From a virus: a stretch of DNA of 6,706 nt. The translations under genes and the position numbers were made by a program. The stretch lies in IMG/VR virus record IMGVR_UViG_3300034682_000254, positions 1 through 6,706 of that record; one strand, 5' to 3'. Of the stretch, positions 1 through 5,540 are shown piece after piece (position 1 is the first letter of the stretch; every line of letters starts with the position of its first letter). The notes beneath the pieces were generated by a model. It saw only the letters and a program-made list of their open reading frames with translations, ran no database searches and was not told the DNA's origin.

Positions 1-127
1 TCTTGTTGCCAGTGATGCCGCCAATTGCATTACGAGCGAGCTTATCACCGCCCGATTTTGTAAATAGAAACCAAGAAAGAGACATTAAAACAACAATGGC
101 AATAATCGCATAAATAAACTTGCTTTG
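1..127. repeat. Terminal redundancy copy A (identical to 6580-6706)
   Basis: Checked base by base: 127/127 identical. It lies inside the gI coding frame, so it marks circularity or tandem copies (or an assembler overlap), not an att site. Confidence 0.95.
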
Positions 128-742
128 TATTTTGAACTGTATAGAAGTATGTGCCGAAGCACTTGTGTACATATCTTGCCATTTTTTGTTATAGAAAAAT
201 TTATAACTGTCTTGATAACTCACCGTTCGAGTTGATGCCGCAGCTTGCCACGGATCACGGAGCCATCGTTCAAATTCGTAGATAGTTGCGAAAGGCGGCT
301 TTTGAATCGGACGCTTAACTAGATACATTTTTTCGACTAATTTTCTTATACCCTTATTTAATCGCTCAGGGTCTTGTGTCATCAAAATAATATCTTTGTT
401 CTGATGTCCATGTGTTGTTAAATCAACAATCATGGGATTTTGTGACATTTTCCCGTCAGAATCGCAATATTCGGGGCGTTTATGTATTTCGTCCATGAAA
501 ATAATTGAATCATTCGGAACGTCACGCCAGTCTTTCGGAGCTTGCTGAATAAAATCACATTTTTCGGCATGTCCTTCAATATCAGAATAAATTTGACGAA
601 CAATGTCTGTTTTAAGATTAAATTTGCCCGAATCTATACGCTTTTGAATCTCAATATTTTTTTGGTGATATTCATAAGCCATTTTTGCCGCAAATTGGCT
701 TTTCCCGTGACGAGGTTGACCAACAATTAAATAAATAGCCAT
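1..742 (-). CDS. gI: Zot/gpI-like assembly ATPase, N-terminal part (codons 1-247). It continues across the circular junction into 6017-6579; full length is 434 aa
   Basis: Manual translation from ATG 740-742 gives MAIYLIVGQPRHGKSQFAAKMAYEYHQ... with no stop down to nt 1. Walker A GQPRHGKS lies at 698-721 and Walker B-like IIFMDE at 488-505. A TM segment FIYAIIAIVVLMSLSWFLF lies near 61-117. The frame is continuous with track ORF 6017-6664 (742-85=657, a multiple of 3). The start overlaps the upstream stop (TAATG). Confidence 0.85.
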   Translation of the reverse strand, partial: MAIYLIVGQPRHGKSQFAAKMAYEYHQKNIEIQKRIDSGKFNLKTDIVRQIYSDIEGHAEKCDFIQQAPKDWRDVPNDSIIFMDEIHKRPEYCDSDGKMSQNPMIVDLTTHGHQNKDIILMTQDPERLNKGIRKLVEKMYLVKRPIQKPPFATIYEFERWLRDPWQAAASTRTVSYQDSYKFFYNKKWQDMYTSASAHTSIQFKIQSKFIYAIIAIVVLMSLSWFLFTKSGGDKLARNAIGGITGNK

Positions 743-1032
743 TAGTTTGTCGCCTTTCCGATTGTGATTTTATTAATCATCAAAGTAATTTTAAGAACAC
801 AAGCGCCCACAATAATTGATAAACCGTAGTCAATATTTGCAAGTGCGAGTATTTGCAAAACAGCGCTTGAAAGCTGACCCCATTCTTGTTGTGCGTGTGA
901 AATCAATTGATTAAATAGAGTTAAAACAACACCACTGGAGAAGATGCCCAAACCTAAACCCTTTAGAACTGATTTACCGAGTTTTGATAGCGTCCAGTCT
1001 GCAACTGCAACAAGTAATAATTTTAGGCTCAT
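742..1032 (-). CDS. Small hydrophobic minor virion/assembly protein in the gpVI position (96 aa)
   Basis: The ATG overlaps the gIII-like stop (ATGA at 1029-1032). The protein is largely hydrophobic with several predicted membrane segments. It sits between the adsorption protein and gI, as in Ff phages. The call rests on position and composition only. Confidence 0.55.
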   Translation of the reverse strand: MSLKLLLVAVADWTLSKLGKSVLKGLGLGIFSSGVVLTLFNQLISHAQQEWGQLSSAVLQILALANIDYGLSIIVGACVLKITLMINKITIGKATN

Positions 1033-2339
1033 ATCTCGCCATCCTCGCCTTTCCTACCCACACCAATAAGAATCATAGCACCCGATAAAAAACCAATAAG
1101 CGGAGCAACAAATGACCATTTTTCGGCAAATTGACAAATCGGTTCATAGCTTATAGTTGCATTGCCATCCGTGCCGATTGATACGTGAATCGGAATATCA
1201 GGAGGACACCCAGCAGTCGCCTTAAAGGCATCCGCTTCGAATTGTGGCAGTTCCATTTCTTGTGGTTGTTCAGGTTCTTCATTTTCTAAAGAATCATTTT
1301 CTTTAGACCAGTCGAAAAATTCATTCACCTTTTCCCAAAAAGTTAATTCTTTAACTCTATGATCATCATTGTTTTTTGAATCTTCTTTATATTTTGCGTA
1401 CCACTCGCACATGATTGGAGCAATAGAACAGAAAGGAGGTAATTTAAATTCTGAGCCTTGCGAGGGCAAGTTAGGATCATAAACGTCAGGTTTACCATCC
1501 CCGTTTGTGTCTTTATTTGGTTTGTTAGTAACGTCACCAACTGGGGGCGTTTTTGGTTGTGGTTCGGCTTTATTTAAAATACTTTCTGTGGCATCAGGCG
1601 CAGGACTAGGGCGAGGCACAGGATTGTTAGGTGAATAAATATCAGGAACAATTTGCGGAGCTTGTGGAGATTCTAATATTTTATTGCCCATTTCATCGGG
1701 TGATACTGGAATATTGCTTGGTGCACCTAGATCGGGGTTATATTTTGGATTTGGAATTTTTTTAATAGTTCCGTTATTAATTTCACGATTGAATTGTTTA
1801 GCTTTGCAATTATAAGTATTTGCATCAACAAATTCTAAACCCAAATATTTCGGAGCGCTTCCAGTTCCATCGCCTTGATTACCAAGAAGAGATTTACATA
1901 AAGCATCTGGATCAGTATTGTAAGCATTTCCATACGACCAAACATAAGGGGCATTGTTTGGATTGACAGTTGCGGGATCAATCTTTTTTACAACACCATT
2001 TTCGATAATCCATCCAACGCCCTCAACTAATGCCAAAACAGCAGCAGAAGCAAGCCCGTACTTAATCATTGTAAAAGCAGTTGAACCCAATGCAGAAGCA
2101 GAAACGGGGACAGTCGCCTTGTATTTAAAATCGTTAGCAGCAGCGCCAAAGTTTTTTTGGACGGTGTACTGTAAATTTTTTCCTATGTTGTTATATACAA
2201 CTTCTTCAATTGTCCACTTTTCAGCAGCACCCGCATAAGCAGAATTAAAAGTATTAAAATAGAGTGTAAAAATAAGAAATACAGAGAAGATTTGTTTTAA
2301 AAGAGCTTTGCGCCCACGATTAGCCACATGATTATACAT
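1029..2339 (-). CDS. gpIII-like minor coat / host adsorption protein (436 aa from ATG 2339; the track's 2375 start is GTG)
   Basis: AGGGG lies 7 nt upstream of ATG 2337-2339. The signal peptide is MYNHVANRGRKALLKQIFSVFLIFTLYFNTFNSAYA|GA. Paired Cys occur in the N- and C-terminal domains. A long Pro-rich linker covers aa ~207-305 of the 448-aa track ORF. The C-terminal membrane anchor is WSFVAPLIGFLSGAMILIGVGRK. The gene follows the major coat gene and its terminator. Confidence 0.7.
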   Translation of the reverse strand: MYNHVANRGRKALLKQIFSVFLIFTLYFNTFNSAYAGAAEKWTIEEVVYNNIGKNLQYTVQKNFGAAANDFKYKATVPVSASALGSTAFTMIKYGLASAAVLALVEGVGWIIENGVVKKIDPATVNPNNAPYVWSYGNAYNTDPDALCKSLLGNQGDGTGSAPKYLGLEFVDANTYNCKAKQFNREINNGTIKKIPNPKYNPDLGAPSNIPVSPDEMGNKILESPQAPQIVPDIYSPNNPVPRPSPAPDATESILNKAEPQPKTPPVGDVTNKPNKDTNGDGKPDVYDPNLPSQGSEFKLPPFCSIAPIMCEWYAKYKEDSKNNDDHRVKELTFWEKVNEFFDWSKENDSLENEEPEQPQEMELPQFEADAFKATAGCPPDIPIHVSIGTDGNATISYEPICQFAEKWSFVAPLIGFLSGAMILIGVGRKGEDGEI

Positions 2340-2381
2340 ATATATGCCCCTAAATTTTCTATATCCATATTTCACCCAGTC

Positions 2382-2411
2382 AAAAAGAAAAAATGCCCTC
2401 AGTTGAGGGCA
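2382..2411 (-). terminator. Rho-independent terminator after the major coat gene
   Basis: A 7-bp GC-rich stem pairs tgccctc (2394-2400) with gagggca (2405-2411), with a 4-nt loop. On the minus strand it is followed by TTTTTTCTTTTT (2382-2393). It starts 8 nt after the coat stop codon. Ff phages also have a terminator after gVIII. Confidence 0.75.
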
Positions 2412-2418
2412 CTGTTTG

Positions 2419-2688
2419 TTACATAGCTGATCGTGCCCATTTGAATACTTTGATCACAACAACAAGAGAAAGCACAGCTAAACCGATTGCACTAACAGTA
2501 GTTACGCCATCGGTAATAGTTCCAACAACTGATGTAACATCAATAGCGGCAGCATTCGCATTACTTACAAGCGCAGCAGATACGGCAACACCGAAACCAT
2601 ATTTTTTAACAGCAGCAACAAAGGCAGCACGGTTGCCGTAAGTTTTGTTCATTGCTTCGTTTACTTGGTCTTGAGTTAATTTGTCCAT
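2419..2688 (-). CDS. gVIII: Major coat protein precursor (gpVIII-like), 89 aa, predicted 43-aa mature peptide
   Basis: A strong SD AAGGAG (2695-2700) lies 6 nt upstream of the ATG. The leader ends in ANA (aa 44-46). The mature peptide AAIDVTSVVGTITDGVTTVSAIGLAVLSLVVVIKVFKWARSAM has an acidic N-terminus, a hydrophobic core and a basic C-terminus (K,K,R), the classic inovirus coat layout. A terminator follows. Confidence 0.85.
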   Translation of the reverse strand: MDKLTQDQVNEAMNKTYGNRAAFVAAVKKYGFGVAVSAALVSNANAAAIDVTSVVGTITDGVTTVSAIGLAVLSLVVVIKVFKWARSAM

Positions 2689-2701
2689 AACGGACTCCTT
2701 T

Positions 2702-2878
2702 TTAATGTAGTGCTTTGATGCACTTTTTGATTACAAAGACCGTTGCAAACACCATTAGACAAGAAAAACCAATGGTATTACCCTCTACTAGTGTGAGCTT
2801 CGGCAACAAAGTGGGCATTTCTACCCATACAAGGCACTGATTTGTTGTAGTATCGAGTTGGTTACAGACCAGTGCCAT
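2702..2878 (-). CDS. Small hydrophobic protein (58 aa, or 38 aa from ATG 2816-2818); candidate gpVII/gpIX-type minor coat protein
   Basis: This ORF is not in the track because it is under 60 aa. Manual translation gives MALVCNQLDTTTNQCLVWVEMPTLLPKLTLVEGNTIGFSCLMVFATVFVIKKCIKALH. It has one C-terminal TM segment plus a basic tail. It fills the gap between the upstream stop (2890) and the coat-gene SD exactly. AGGAA overlaps the upstream stop, 9 nt before the ATG. Confidence 0.5.
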   Translation of the reverse strand: MALVCNQLDTTTNQCLVWVEMPTLLPKLTLVEGNTIGFSCLMVFATVFVIKKCIKALH

Positions 2879-2889
2879 TTCTTAAATTC

Positions 2890-3273
2890 CTAACGTATGT
2901 TTTGACAACCAACTTCGTGAAGTTGTGTCTTGTAAAAGTCTTGTACAGATCCAAAATTCTTATGACATGAGCTACAAGTGACAGATTTAAAAGGTCTTGG
3001 TTCTGTTCCGTCTTTTGGAAAAGCTACACTTGTTGCATACGAGTTGCCCCAGTAAACAGTTTTTGGTTCTGCAAAATATTCAGGATGTGCAATATTGGTT
3101 GCGCCATCTTCATCAGGATCTTGTTCAAATCCCGATGGTTCGCCAGTAACTTGTTCTACTGTTAAACGTGTGCAGTCAGAACAACGTGAATCAGCAAATA
3201 GATATGCAGTTTCTCGTTCACACTGGTAGCAAGTTGAAAGATCCTTTATTAATTGCTCTTTAGGGTCAAACAT
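2890..3273 (-). CDS. Acidic Cys-rich hypothetical protein (127 aa) with two putative zinc-binding knuckle sets
   Basis: The start lies 1 nt after the upstream stop (TGAAATG). One set is C15-x2-C18-x12-C31-x2-C34 (nt 3172-3231). The other is C100-x2-C103-x15-H119-x3-C123 (nt 2905-2976). There is no TM segment. The middle is acidic (EQDPDEDG). I recognise no family. Confidence 0.6.
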   Translation of the reverse strand: MFDPKEQLIKDLSTCYQCERETAYLFADSRCSDCTRLTVEQVTGEPSGFEQDPDEDGATNIAHPEYFAEPKTVYWGNSYATSVAFPKDGTEPRPFKSVTCSSCHKNFGSVQDFYKTQLHEVGCQNIR

Positions 3274-3274
3274 T

Positions 3275-3595
3275 TCAGGCAGCCTTAACTTGTTTTTCTT
3301 CGAGCATTAACGGCTTGCCGTCACCAGTGGTTTTGTAAAAGATCGCCATACCATTCATTTGAGTAGACAATTCAACAGGCAAATAAATGTCACGGCCTTT
3401 AAATGAAAGATAGAAATCTTTCATATGTTGGTGATCTTGAATAACAGTAACGTTTTGAGAACATGGGACGATTTGTTCTAATCCCTTATCAAATTTTTGT
3501 GATGCAAAGATAAGACGCATTTTTGGATTGCCTTTATCATCTACACCATTGTTTTCGACATTAAGTAATTTTGCTTTAAAGATTAATTGAGACAT
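3275..3595 (-). CDS. Probable ssDNA-binding protein (gpV position), 106 aa
   Basis: SD AAGGTG overlaps the gII stop, 5 nt upstream of ATG 3593-3595. It lies immediately downstream of gII as gV does in Ff. It is small and its sequence suggests beta-strand richness. The function is assigned by position only; I see no clear similarity to M13 gpV. Confidence 0.5.
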   Translation of the reverse strand: MSQLIFKAKLLNVENNGVDDKGNPKMRLIFASQKFDKGLEQIVPCSQNVTVIQDHQHMKDFYLSFKGRDIYLPVELSTQMNGMAIFYKTTGDGKPLMLEEKQVKAA

Positions 3596-3604
3596 GTTTT
3601 CACC

Positions 3605-4210
3605 TTATGCGGTACGTAATTGATAACTGAACATTGAAACTGGTTCGACAAAGTTTTCAGGTAATTGATCTTCGAATTTCATTTCGAACATTTTGATAAA
3701 TGGAATAACGTTATTGGTTGATTGAACATGCAGATTTTGAAGATAAACAAGTGAATAACCACACTTTTTAAGAGCAGCAATAAGATTTGAAAACTGAGAT
3801 TTCTTGTATTTTGACTTCATTTCTTCATAGCCAAATTTTTCAAGATCGTAATAAAAACGTTCAATATTTCTAGCTTTACGCTCTGAAACCGTACCAGCAG
3901 GAATTTCTTTTTTAAATGCCTTAAATAGCTGTATGTAAACATTGATATGACAGAAATTCTGTGACGGTTTTTCATGTAGACGTTGTAAGTATGTACCACT
4001 AAAACCAGTATCAATCAGATCGGCAACAAGGTTTAAAAAACGCTTATGCGTGTATTTCTTTTTCGTTTCATTATGACCAATTTTCTCAAGCAAAAGATAA
4101 AACTCCATGAGTTCATCAACCTTTCGTGTACAAATTTTCTTTTCAGTAGATACAGTTTGATGAACAGCAAGAATATTTTTAAATACAGTTTCATGGTCAG
4201 ATACTTTCAT
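3605..4210 (-). CDS. gX: Candidate in-frame nested gX-like product (201 aa, from Met292 of gII)
   Basis: ATG 4208-4210 is preceded by GAGGG with a 7-nt spacer (gca ttt GAG GGt aca aat ATG). This Met aligns with the Met in M13 ...AFEGDSM NIYDD..., where gene X starts, as I recall it. Confidence 0.5.
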   Translation of the reverse strand: MKVSDHETVFKNILAVHQTVSTEKKICTRKVDELMEFYLLLEKIGHNETKKKYTHKRFLNLVADLIDTGFSGTYLQRLHEKPSQNFCHINVYIQLFKAFKKEIPAGTVSERKARNIERFYYDLEKFGYEEMKSKYKKSQFSNLIAALKKCGYSLVYLQNLHVQSTNNVIPFIKMFEMKFEDQLPENFVEPVSMFSYQLRTA

Positions 4211-5083
4211 ATTTGTACCCTCAAATGCTTGAAATAATTGATGGTTTGCTTTAAGCCAGATGTCTTGTAAAAAAGTAGGATTAGAACGTTGATAGCGAAT
4301 TAATTGAAATAAATTAGTGGGGATGTCGAGTTCTTTCATAACATAGGCTTTAATGCCTGTTTCAAATCTTAAAAGACCACGAGCAAAAGCTTGTAACTCA
4401 GGGTCAGACATAACTTTCACAACACGCTGAGCGCATTTATCATTTGCTTTAGCAAGTTTAATTTGTTCCTGTAATTGATCTTGGAACTCATTAAATTTGA
4501 CATAGACTTTACGAGCAAAACGCTTGCAACGTTCAGAACCAAAGTAAAGCGTATTTTTAAAAGTAGCGTCTTTTGTTGATTTACGGATGTGTTGCGTAGA
4601 AACATTACGCATCAAAGCAAGAACTTTTTCTGCTTCTCGATCATCCTTGAAACGAAATGAATATGTAGCGTCAAGTTGCTTAACTTCTGTCATACCAATG
4701 TCAAGAATGTCATAGAGTGCAGGGTTTGATTGAGCTAGAAAGCCCAACATTTCTAAAGCACCCTCTTCTATCCAGTCAGTACCATAGACGTTATGCCCTT
4801 GCATAATTTTTGCAGGTGAGCATTTAAGCTCTACATAGGGATGACCAACAACATCATGAAACAACTTGAAAGACATTGCTGTATGTGAAGTCGGGATTTT
4901 TGACCATACATGATGCAAGATTTGATTTTTAACATTGCCATCTTCATCTTTGTATACATCGTAAGAACCAACTTTAAGATTTAGGTCAAGCAGATCAAAA
5001 CAAATAATGCAGTGTCGACCGTCACTTGTTAATTCAACAAGCTCAGTCTTAACAGGTATCCACATTACAATTCTGTCTAGCAT
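3605..5083 (-). CDS. gII: Rolling-circle replication initiator, Ff gpII family (492 aa)
   Basis: Several blocks match my recollection of M13/f1 gpII. VELKCSPAKIMQGHNVYGT matches VEIKASPAKVLQGHNVFGT. LYDILDIG..LDATYSFRF matches LYDLLDVN..IDATFSAR. MSDPELQAFARGLLRFETGIKAY..IPTNLFQLIRY matches LSNPDLLEFASGLVRFEARIKTRY..LPLNLFDAIRF. LFQAFEGTNM matches LFKAFEGDSM. STNNVIPFIKMF matches STCNNVVPLVRFI. Confidence 0.9.
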   Translation of the reverse strand: MLDRIVMWIPVKTELVELTSDGRHCIICFDLLDLNLKVGSYDVYKDEDGNVKNQILHHVWSKIPTSHTAMSFKLFHDVVGHPYVELKCSPAKIMQGHNVYGTDWIEEGALEMLGFLAQSNPALYDILDIGMTEVKQLDATYSFRFKDDREAEKVLALMRNVSTQHIRKSTKDATFKNTLYFGSERCKRFARKVYVKFNEFQDQLQEQIKLAKANDKCAQRVVKVMSDPELQAFARGLLRFETGIKAYVMKELDIPTNLFQLIRYQRSNPTFLQDIWLKANHQLFQAFEGTNMKVSDHETVFKNILAVHQTVSTEKKICTRKVDELMEFYLLLEKIGHNETKKKYTHKRFLNLVADLIDTGFSGTYLQRLHEKPSQNFCHINVYIQLFKAFKKEIPAGTVSERKARNIERFYYDLEKFGYEEMKSKYKKSQFSNLIAALKKCGYSLVYLQNLHVQSTNNVIPFIKMFEMKFEDQLPENFVEPVSMFSYQLRTA

Positions 5084-5214
5084 GATTATTCTTAGACCCT
5101 AAAATCACAAATGCATAAATCATTTTAGGGAGATAAAAACATAAATCACATATAAACACAAGCAGAAATCACAAATTCATTTAGAATCTAGTGATTTTTA
5201 AAAGGATTATCGAA
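5084..5214. promoter_or_regulatory. Divergent control region between gII (minus) and the regulator (plus), with repeated AAATCAC(A) motifs and a 34-bp palindrome
   Basis: AAATCACA occurs at 5102-5109, 5143-5150 and 5166-5173. The variant AAATCAT is at 5117-5123 and an inverted copy GTGATTT at 5191-5197. Longer repeats are AAATCACAAAT (5102-5112, 5166-5176) and CATAAATCA (5114-5122, 5140-5148). A 9-bp inverted repeat pairs ccctaaaat (5097-5105) with attttaggg (5122-5130), centred on ATGCAT. The region is AT-rich with -10-like hexamers (TAGAAT 5182-5187 on plus; TAAAAT 5122-5127 on minus), but I found no convincing -35 elements. Confidence 0.5.
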
Positions 5215-5418
5215 ATGGCTAAAACGTTTAGATTTACTGATGAAGAAGAACAAGCATTAAATGAAGTTGCTTTGAAGATAAATCGAGACCTAGTTAAAGC
5301 AGGGAAAAAGCCGTTAAGAGATACAGAAATATTCCACGAAATTATTAAACAAACATTAGTTAATGGAAGCGTAGAAGTAAGCAGAGATGGAAGTTTGAAA
5401 GTAGAGACAAAAAAGTAA
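5215..5418 (+). CDS. Small ribbon-helix-helix-like DNA-binding regulator (67 aa), divergent from gII
   Basis: AAAGGA (5201-5206) lies 8 nt upstream of ATG 5215; the track start at 5191 is GTG. The N-terminus MAKTFRFTDEEEQALNEVALKINRDL...RDTEIFHEIIKQTL fits a strand-helix-turn-helix (RHH) pattern. It is the only plus-strand gene and is placed like the divergent repressors of temperate inoviruses. A hairpin plus T5 follows it. Confidence 0.6.
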   Translation: MAKTFRFTDEEEQALNEVALKINRDLVKAGKKPLRDTEIFHEIIKQTLVNGSVEVSRDGSLKVETKK

Positions 5419-5422
5419 GTTT

Positions 5423-5465
5423 TCCGAAATATCGGACTTAAGTCCACTCCAGAGAACGTGGACTT
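5423..5465 (-). other. Candidate plus-strand (viral-strand) replication origin: f1-like nick hairpin plus adjacent palindromes. On the window plus strand it may also act as the intrinsic terminator of the regulator gene
   Basis: The minus strand reads AAGTCCAC-GTTCTCTGGA-GTGGACTT (8-bp stem 5440-5447/5458-5465). The f1 ori as I recall it is GAGTCCAC-GTTCTTTAATA-GTGGACTC. They share AGTCCACGTTCT (12/12) and GTGGACT (7/7). Next to it are the palindrome GGACTTAAGTCC (5434-5445) and the inverted repeat TCCGA-AATA-TCGGA (5423-5436), where f1 has its gpII-binding inverted repeat. On the plus strand the stem is followed by TTTTT (5465-5469), 22 nt after the regulator stop. Confidence 0.6.
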
Positions 5466-5477
5466 TTTCACGAATGG

Positions 5478-5530
5478 ACGCTTTGCAATGGTCGAGTTGC
5501 GAGCCCTCACTCCACCCCATTGCAAAGCGT
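5478..5530. other. Perfect 14-bp inverted repeat (hairpin with a 25-nt GC-rich loop) between the ori-like hairpin and the dif-like site
   Basis: acgctttgcaatgg (5478-5491) is the exact reverse complement of ccattgcaaagcgt (5517-5530). The loop is tcgagttgcgagccctcactccacc. It is locally GC-rich in an AT-rich genome. Confidence 0.6.
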
Positions 5531-5540
5531 ATAGGCTTGT

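Follow-up and report, generated by a model that had tools for sequence, protein, structure and literature searches.

A tandem duplication of the C-terminal gpII/gpX module in a replication protein of Acinetobacter filamentous phages, and the probable role of the module in origin recognition

Introduction

The DNA analysed here (IMG/VR record IMGVR_UViG_3300034682_000254, positions 1 to 6,706, hereafter the window) comprises 6706 nucleotides (nt), that is, a circular genome of 6579 nt plus 127 nt of terminal redundancy, and represents an inovirus, a small filamentous phage whose main genes all lie on the minus strand. We describe the replication protein of this phage (Rep, gene II type), in which a C-terminal module of 82 residues occurs twice in tandem, and we relate the module to the plus-strand origin and to the nested gene X. 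The best match of Rep among known phages is Acinetobacter phage M02, with 40% identity, and none of 50,697 phage records is near-identical to the window. The host is almost certainly Acinetobacter, because Reps with 92-93% protein identity occur in Acinetobacter parvus DSM 16617 and in A. higginsii CIP 70.18 (a prophage on a 2.6-Mb scaffold), and a 99%-identical Rep is present in one IMG/VR contig. Little has been reported on the molecular role of the C-terminal third of gpII and of protein X, and one paper calls the regulatory role of X unclear.

The replication protein and its place in the gpII/gpX family

The Rep gene and its parts are arranged as follows (aa, amino acids; pLDDT, predicted local distance difference test).

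3605-5083, minus strand: Rep (gene II type), 492 aa plus stop
4211-5083, minus strand: N-terminal catalytic part (aa 1-291), Phage_CRI / Rep_trans-like
4502-4504, minus strand: candidate catalytic Tyr194 in Y-V-K-F-N-E
3890-4135, minus strand: copy 1 of the module (aa 317-398), an internal divergent paralogue with the tail motif N-x-(D/S)-H-x-x-x-Y...FKK
4016-4051, minus strand: copy 1 helix equivalent to the putative recognition helix (aa 345-356), THKRFLNLVADL
3644-3889, minus strand: copy 2 of the module (aa 399-480), conservative, equivalent of the single module in Ff and in single-module Acinetobacter phages
3770-3805, minus strand: putative recognition helix of copy 2 (aa 427-438), KKSQFSNLIAAL
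3608-3643, minus strand: C-terminal tail after copy 2 (aa 481-492), present once, pLDDT low or variable

Judged from its sequence, Rep belongs to the gpII/gpX family on each criterion that can be tested (nickase domain, C-terminal module, motif, nested start and origin). The N-terminal part matches Pfam Phage_CRI (PF05144) over aa 1-254 (E 5e-43, 147.9 bits with a cut-off of 21.7), and the C-terminus matches Pfam G2P_X_C (PF05155) over aa 395-484 (E 5e-15, 56.4 bits with a cut-off of 25), a stretch that corresponds to copy 2. Copy 1 alone reaches 13.9 bits with G2P_X_C, which is under the cut-off, although its homology to copy 2 and to the module of fd is clear. Because Pfam detects copy 2 only, the domain annotation hides the second module, and proteins of this kind are labelled as ordinary II/X members. 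The NCBIfam profile TIGR01629 (rep_II_X) scores 267 bits with Rep (cut-off 29) and matches two stretches, and copy 1 taken alone aligns to profile positions 297-377. Residues Y194, K196 and E199 are invariant in 53 aligned sequences; they form the YxKxxE motif of Rep_trans and Phage_CRI proteins (PMC5714925, PMC4797284), and the corresponding stretch of fd gII reads Y-L-K-H-V-E.

An 82-residue tandem duplication

A first-pass annotation of the window had proposed a duplication of the gX module with a period of 82 aa, in which aa 320-376 align with aa 402-458 at 25 of 57 identities and an offset of exactly 82 residues (aa 320-458 being window positions 3710-4126). Coordinates and count are exact, and these segments are the core of the repeat, but the boundaries were drawn too narrowly: complete units of 82 aa align, covering aa 317-398 and aa 399-480. 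The repeat is significant by each measure applied. On the ungapped BLOSUM62 self-diagonals, the best score is 119 at offset 82, against 28 for the next diagonal and a mean of 32.4 (standard deviation 3.9, maximum 48) in 200 shuffles, and a gapped Smith-Waterman alignment of aa 301-398 with aa 399-492 scores 126 against 27±4.4 for shuffles (z = 22). Self-BLASTP culls contained high-scoring segment pairs (HSPs) and so leaves an internal repeat unlisted; diagonal scans, Smith-Waterman alignments with shuffles, and hidden Markov models (HMMs) were used instead.

Compared with single-module relatives, each unit opens with a short beta-hairpin (QTVSTEKKIC in copy 1, EIPAGTVS in copy 2, and TVTPSGRVS as the equivalent where there is one module only), continues with four helices and ends within the tail, of which it includes the initial portion (FCHINVYIQLFKAFKK in copy 1, VIPFIKMFEMKFEDQ in copy 2). 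The AlphaFold2 (AF2) model of Rep, built with an alignment of 53 sequences (pLDDT 85, predicted TM-score 0.72), shows two tandem helical modules. The helices of copy 1 lie at 320-335, 337-341, 346-358, 363-367 and 379-390, with pLDDT of 91-95, the highest of the C-terminal region, and those of copy 2 at 402-417, 419-425, 428-440 and 445-449, so that each of the four module helices is found exactly 82 residues beyond its counterpart in copy 1. At the DNA level the two copies are 54% identical, with 44% identity at third codon positions as opposed to 28% for shuffles. Because the copies are only 54% identical in DNA, the duplication is old and is no artefact of assembly.

Comparison with the canonical family members leads to the same picture. 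The gpII of fd has 410 aa and a single module (aa 326-406), and its gpX has 111 aa (NC_025824), whereas the window Rep has 492 aa, two modules and a predicted X of 201 aa; the expectation that canonical gpII holds one copy in 410 aa, and that the surplus of 492 - 410 residues equals one period, thus holds for fd. When the two proteins are aligned (overall identity about 30%), window residues 1-369 correspond to fd 1-377 and window residues 395-482 to fd 321-406, so that the single fd module aligns to both copies, and the family comparison yielded no canonical gpII with two copies. Our analysis confirms that the 82-residue C-terminal module of Rep has been duplicated in tandem and in frame, and that this duplication is old and conserved; it is a significant intragenic tandem repeat with the same predicted secondary structure in both copies and with single-copy outgroups.

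Distribution of one- and two-module replication proteins

To place the duplication among relatives, module counts were made by HMM in 114 homologues drawn from 5.8 billion proteins, including sequences named A. wuhouensis, A. gyllenbergii, A. baumannii and A. bereziniae. Two modules are found in about 28 proteins of 490-517 aa, all of the Acinetobacter type and 51-91% identical to the window Rep, and one module in about 74 proteins of 400-434 aa (all 74 in the class of 395-460 aa). About 75% of the related Acinetobacter inovirus Reps have one unit and a length near 411 aa. Among 173 fetched loci, 31 of 187 Rep open reading frames (ORFs) have two modules, and all of these belong to Acinetobacter or to unassigned viral contigs. 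A search of 1.84 billion cluster representatives with a two-copy profile gave 59 hits (E ≤ 0.001), of which only P0010 (493 aa) and P0117 (490 aa) were matched at full length in two stretches; this is consistent with restriction to one lineage, within the reach of a two-sequence profile that is insensitive and from which independent duplications of divergent modules elsewhere could escape. The single-module state is shown to be general in the family, in Ff, Pseudomonas, Vibrio and most Acinetobacter phages, and the sequences compared identify the two-module Rep as a lineage-restricted variant of Acinetobacter filamentous phages.

Full-text literature searches returned no description of a gX-module duplication, and the published descriptions of Acinetobacter filamentous phages mention Rep only generically. 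The suggestion of the first-pass annotation that the duplication is undescribed therefore stands for the searchable literature; the feature itself is not unique to this genome, as it defines a lineage of about 30 known relatives (490-494 aa, all from Acinetobacter or metagenomes) that public databases list under a generic name.

Reps of the Vibrio type with about 517-531 aa were considered as further duplications and rejected, because in the four tested (522-525 aa) the additional C-terminal residues show no relation to the module (z about 0), and the Rep of Pseudomonas phage NEU2023 (457 aa) was rejected likewise, its extra length being in the N-terminal part. The Vibrio and Shewanella Reps of 517-531 aa (P0109-P0113; L055, L072, L080, L081, L083, L088) have a single module, after which comes a C-terminal stretch of about 100 aa that is not related to it. 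One locus (L123, 509-1855) encodes a two-module Rep that is cut off inside copy 2 at 449 aa, ending ...RELFLLSST, and this is a frameshifted or defective variant.

The candidate nested gene X

The duplication lies downstream of a conserved internal start at Met292, so that the nested gX product would be changed along with Rep, as had been anticipated from the window alone.

3605-4210 (ATG at 4208-4210), minus strand: candidate nested in-frame gene X, from Met292 to the stop, 201 aa, with both modules
4218-4222, minus strand: Shine-Dalgarno (SD) sequence GAGGG of gene X, in Glu-Gly codons 288-289, 8 nt before the start

The column of Met292 holds Met in 99 of 108 homologues, and Val encoded by GTG, still a start codon, in three close relatives (P0008-10). 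The internal start reads QAFEGTNM in the window and KAFEGDSM at the gX start of fd, with FEGxxM in common, and GAGGG is kept in eight two-module phages, with GAGG in M02. Among close relatives, identity at third codon positions is 0.75-0.85 over codons 281-305 (window 4169-4243), peaking at 0.85, and about 0.5 elsewhere, which points to a constraint at the nucleotide level, such as a translation initiation region or an internal promoter. It is very likely, from this conservation, that a 201-aa X with both copies is made.

The plus-strand origin and its co-variation with the module

The origin lies upstream of Rep and has the following parts.

5421-5468, minus strand: plus-strand origin core, 48 nt, 330-390 nt upstream of Rep, AAAAAGTCCACGTTCTCTGGAGTGGACTTAAGTCCGATATTTCGGAAA
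5441-5464, minus strand: origin hairpin 1, AGTCCAC-GTTCTCTGGA-GTGGACT, with the presumed nick in the loop, GTTCTCT^GGA
5423-5436, minus strand: origin inverted repeat IR2, TCCGA-TATT-TCGGA (TCCGATATTTCGGA)

The fd origin, AGTCCACGTTCTTTAATAGTGGACTCTTGTTCCAAACTGGAACA (NC_025824), is built in the same way and differs little in sequence, and the cut site of Ff pII is TTCTTT^AATA (PMC4403547). The hairpin GTCCAC-N(6-16)-GTGGAC, mostly with a loop of 10 or 11 nt, is found at 121 of the 187 Rep loci, among them L001, L003, L005, L007-L011, L013 and about 110 others, and the architecture is kept from fd to the phages of Acinetobacter, Pseudomonas and Vibrio. In 86 unique phages IR2 is present at a fixed offset from the hairpin and with variable sequence. 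Its length, symmetry and offset are equal in one- and two-module phages, both of which have a single symmetric IR2.

To relate this variation to the protein, we assigned each of the 86 phages to an IR2 class, defined as the 5-mer at +6 to +10 after GTGGAC, and compared the classes with the columns of the Rep alignment. The highest normalised mutual information with IR2 is found at Rep residue 429. When close pairs are considered (N-domains at least 70% identical), the top 5 of 406 columns are 429, 437, 433, 430 and 427 (S429, A437, N433, Q430 and K427 in the window), with deltas of 0.49-0.70 against a median of 0.04, and residue 429 also ranks first in the mid and far strata of pairs. Residues 427, 429, 430, 433 and 437 lie on one face of the helix at 428-440 of copy 2, which is the single module elsewhere. 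The association can be read as an apparent code at the third base of IR2, with S or T at position 429 paired with C, and A or P paired with T. In a set of 61 unique combinations from 23 N-domain clusters, 38 of the 43 with C as third base have Ser or Thr at 429, and 17 of the 18 with another base have Ala, Pro or other residues there (38/5 vs 1/17; Fisher p = 8e-10). Identical pairings are seen repeatedly in Rep backbones that are unrelated to one another: KSQFxNL occurs with TCCGA-TATT-TCGGA in the window, in L100 of group B and in M02-like phages, and T-R-F pairs with CTCCCG in one- and two-module phages.

Because IR2 co-varies with one face of one helix, the module is probably the origin-recognition domain of Rep, with the helix at 427-437 as its putative recognition helix. 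In the AF2 model the module consists of a helix, a short helix (419-425), a turn and a long helix (428-440), and there is no fold match that would support a helix-turn-helix. Rep_trans initiators provide a precedent for a separate DNA-binding domain beside the catalytic domain (PMC4797284).

Proposed roles of the two copies

Taken together, we consider it probable, at roughly 0.7, that the duplication is ancient, that the module serves as an IR2-reading origin-recognition domain, and that copy 1 has been retained for another function. One face of the third module helix would read IR2 at a fixed distance from the nick hairpin, with copy 2 keeping this ancestral role and copy 1 kept for a function other than IR2 reading. 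The copy 1 helix K-R-(F/Y)-L-N-L is unchanged in nine group A phages (F/Y in L010) that span four IR2 classes (TCCGA, GCCTA, GCTCA and TCTCA), whereas the copy 2 helices of group A vary in step with the IR2 class; the other two-module groups have other copy 1 helices, which again are constant within each clade. Because the copy 1 helix stays constant while IR2 changes, copy 1 does not look like a second reader of IR2. Our best guess is that copy 1 makes an additional protein-protein contact, or a DNA contact outside IR2, that would alter the assembly of Rep and X at the origin. Protein X, the presumed regulator, with a predicted 201 aa compared with 111-120 aa elsewhere, would compete with Rep or join it at the origin by means of copy 2, and would carry copy 1 along with it.

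The phylogeny of the modules separates the two copies. Copy 1 sequences of the two-module groups A and B, together with that of L022 (a contig of A. qingfengensis CCUG 69710T), form one clade in 497 of 500 bootstraps, and they share the tail motif given above, which is present neither in copy 2 nor in single modules. Copy 2 sequences are intermixed with single modules and are monophyletic in only 49 of 500 bootstraps. The clade of copy 1, as against the intermixed copy 2, indicates that copy 1 arose once and diverged fast while copy 2 stayed conservative.

The contig L022 itself (1-5210) consists of an exact tandem unit of 2598 nt, which holds only two 66-aa ORFs, an origin, a two-module Rep and a 116-aa ORF; the layout points to an inovirus-derived mini-replicon or satellite of 2.6 kb that was assembled as a dimer.

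Several observations weigh against the reading proposed above, or against a simple form of it. The tree of the N-domain does not recover the two-module Reps as strictly monophyletic, and the Rep of L022 has a copy 1 of the lineage type, although its N-domain (65% identity, vs 41% to the window Rep) and its copy 2 are both M02-like. Because of this tree and this chimera, copy 1 has either moved by recombination or been lost several times, and there is no simple single-lineage history. Selection was compared in eight Rep genes, where the nonsynonymous distance (dN) is far below the synonymous distance (dS) in both copies and dN in copy 1 exceeds that in copy 2 and in the N-domain by a factor of 1.5-2; dS is saturated, so that only the qualitative dN/dS result is usable and omega is rough, and at this level both copies are shown to be under purifying selection. 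The co-variation statistics are not fully corrected for phylogeny, and the 20 two-module phages alone, with few independent pairs, do not separate copy 1 from copy 2. Foldseek searches of PDB and BFVD with the full model and with the X-only model gave no match with E <0.1, and a PDB sequence search with the 53-sequence profile gave no hit. The comparison of origins and of enriched k-mers disclosed no DNA motif that is peculiar to two-module phages and could be a binding site for copy 1. The expression of X from Met292, finally, is deduced from the conservation of its start region.

One further reading goes beyond the proposed one. Copy 1 might be a neofunctionalised, cassette-like module that gives Rep and X a second binding specificity (for a host factor, a phage protein or a DNA site other than IR2) and that recombination has carried from one Rep backbone to another, unrelated one, the A. 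qingfengensis mini-replicon being an example. We regard this only as a tentative possibility, with perhaps distinct replication control, or interference between co-resident filamentous phages, as its consequence if it is true.

It is improbable that the two modules act as a single-chain dimer, in which one chain of Rep or X reads both half-sites of the palindromic IR2 in place of a dimer of single-module proteins. Such an arrangement would suit the two-fold symmetry of IR2 in all phages and the confident prediction of two tandem homologous helical modules. However, copy 1 differs from copy 2 at T345, K347, R348, N351 and D355, positions that remain constant in group A while IR2 and copy 2 change together, a symmetric site would not be expected to be read by two different helices, and IR2 has the same dimensions whether the Rep has one module or two.

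We give equally little credence to copy 1 as a functionless relic, a decaying duplicate that serves as a linker. Its faster evolution and its score below the Pfam threshold are what such a relic would show, but its dN remains far below dS, it is retained at full length and with no indels of note in Reps that are only 51-57% identical, it has conserved motifs of its own and the best-modelled structure of the C-terminal region, and it is found again on the different Rep backbone of L022.

A second internal start just before copy 2 would yield a classical single-module X and leave the duplication with an effect on Rep only. This is conceivable in principle, as the X of Ff starts just before its module, but we judge it very unlikely: between aa 331 and 422 the window has no in-frame ATG, GTG or TTG with an SD sequence, Met422 is not conserved in group B, and synonymous-site conservation does not rise ahead of copy 2 to a peak like that at codon 292. 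Chance similarity, low complexity or an assembly artefact of the contig, an a priori possibility to which the silence of self-BLAST adds nothing beyond the culling of HSPs, is refuted by the z value of 22, by the DNA divergence of the copies and by >25 independent sequences that have the same architecture, some of them from isolate genomes (A. parvus, A. higginsii, A. wuhouensis and A. baumannii).

Relation to known systems

The window Rep resembles the gpII/gpX proteins of Ff (f1/fd/M13) and IKe in its Y-x-K-x-x-E nickase domain, its C-terminal module, the FEGxxM internal start and the order of gII/gX followed by gV, and the origins of the window and of Ff have in common a GTCCAC...GTGGAC hairpin and an inverted repeat that comes after it at an equal offset. 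The two modules set this Rep apart from all characterised gpII/gpX members, without making it a new kind of system. A sharper comparison than that with Ff is offered by the single-module Acinetobacter phages (M02, OQ693633; the Af phages of Narancic et al. 2024), which share the host genus, genome size, layout and a near-identical origin with the window; their Reps of 405-413 aa are 40-64% identical to that of the window and lack the 82-aa copy 1. The IR2 of M02 is that of the window, TCCGATATTTCGGA.

A more distant analogy, which does not amount to membership, exists with the Rep_trans initiators of pT181-family plasmids (RepD/RepC; Carr et al. 2016, PMC4797284), which have, besides the catalytic tyrosine nickase, a DNA-binding domain as a separate unit. 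The motifs of Phage_CRI resemble those of Rep_trans, and weak Foldseek hits of the whole model to proteins like the TATA-binding protein (TBP; probability 0.4) fit the TBP-like sheet topology of Rep_trans, a curved sheet that Phage_CRI nickases have been proposed to share (PMC4797284). The DNA-binding domains of the two groups have no detectable similarity in sequence or fold, and neither a nested regulator nor a tandem duplication has been described in Rep_trans.

The lineage amounts to a natural experiment, in which one module can be compared with two and the extra copy is also part of the nested protein, and it is a tidy case of domain duplication and divergence inside overlapping genes. 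The duplication gains value through the assignment of the gpII C-terminal/gpX module as origin reader, which is testable. If this assignment is true, it would explain origin specificity and incompatibility among the filamentous phages and prophages of Acinetobacter, a clinically relevant genus, and could guide the engineering of orthogonal replicons of the Ff type.

Genome context

The remaining genes of the window are as follows.

1-742 and 6017-6579, minus strand: Zot/gI, 434 aa, ATG at 742, intact across the window ends (the ORF list shows a 215-aa fragment only)
5191-5418, plus strand: divergent 75-aa ORF, PHROG 5642, adjoining the upstream region of gII
Minus strand: ORF at the gene V position, family phrog_15713, which has no annotated function
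2890-3273, minus strand: 127-aa Cys-rich ORF (CxxC...CxxC...CxxC), PHROG 8389, between the gene-V-position ORF and the small structural genes
Minus strand: major coat protein, Phage_Coat_B
Minus strand: 448-aa ORF, whose position matches an M02 gene annotated as virulence factor TspB C-terminal domain-related
Minus strand: DUF2523 protein
Minus strand: two further small ORFs, one after Zot/gI and one after the 127-aa insert

A genome without the assembly gene Zot/gI was considered and rejected, as the intact 434-aa gene crosses the ends of the circular genome. The 127-aa Cys-rich ORF is not present in the closest relatives (L094, L095, L014 and L026), whose alignments skip from about 3279 to 2891, and it looks like an inserted moron. 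The phage L005, which has a 91%-identical Rep (P0001), shares with the window as DNA only the stretch from gII through the gene-V-position ORF (3290-5083, 82% nucleotide identity) and a 56-nt origin core (5415-5470); the structural and assembly genes cannot be aligned as DNA, and the genome is therefore a mosaic.

Between gII and the 75-aa ORF (5084-5190), three direct TGTGATTT repeats lie on the minus strand at 5102-5109, 5143-5150 and 5166-5173, and may serve as the operator of a regulator module that is exchangeable. The enriched TGTGATTT k-mers upstream of gII were also considered as an element specific to two-module phages, and this was rejected because they occur in the single-module L138 and are not found in many two-module phages. 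Just upstream of the plus-strand origin, at 5479-5529, is a perfect hairpin with a 13-bp stem (CGCTTTGCAATGG ... CCATTGCAAAGCG), which is also present in L014 and may be a minus-strand origin or a packaging signal.

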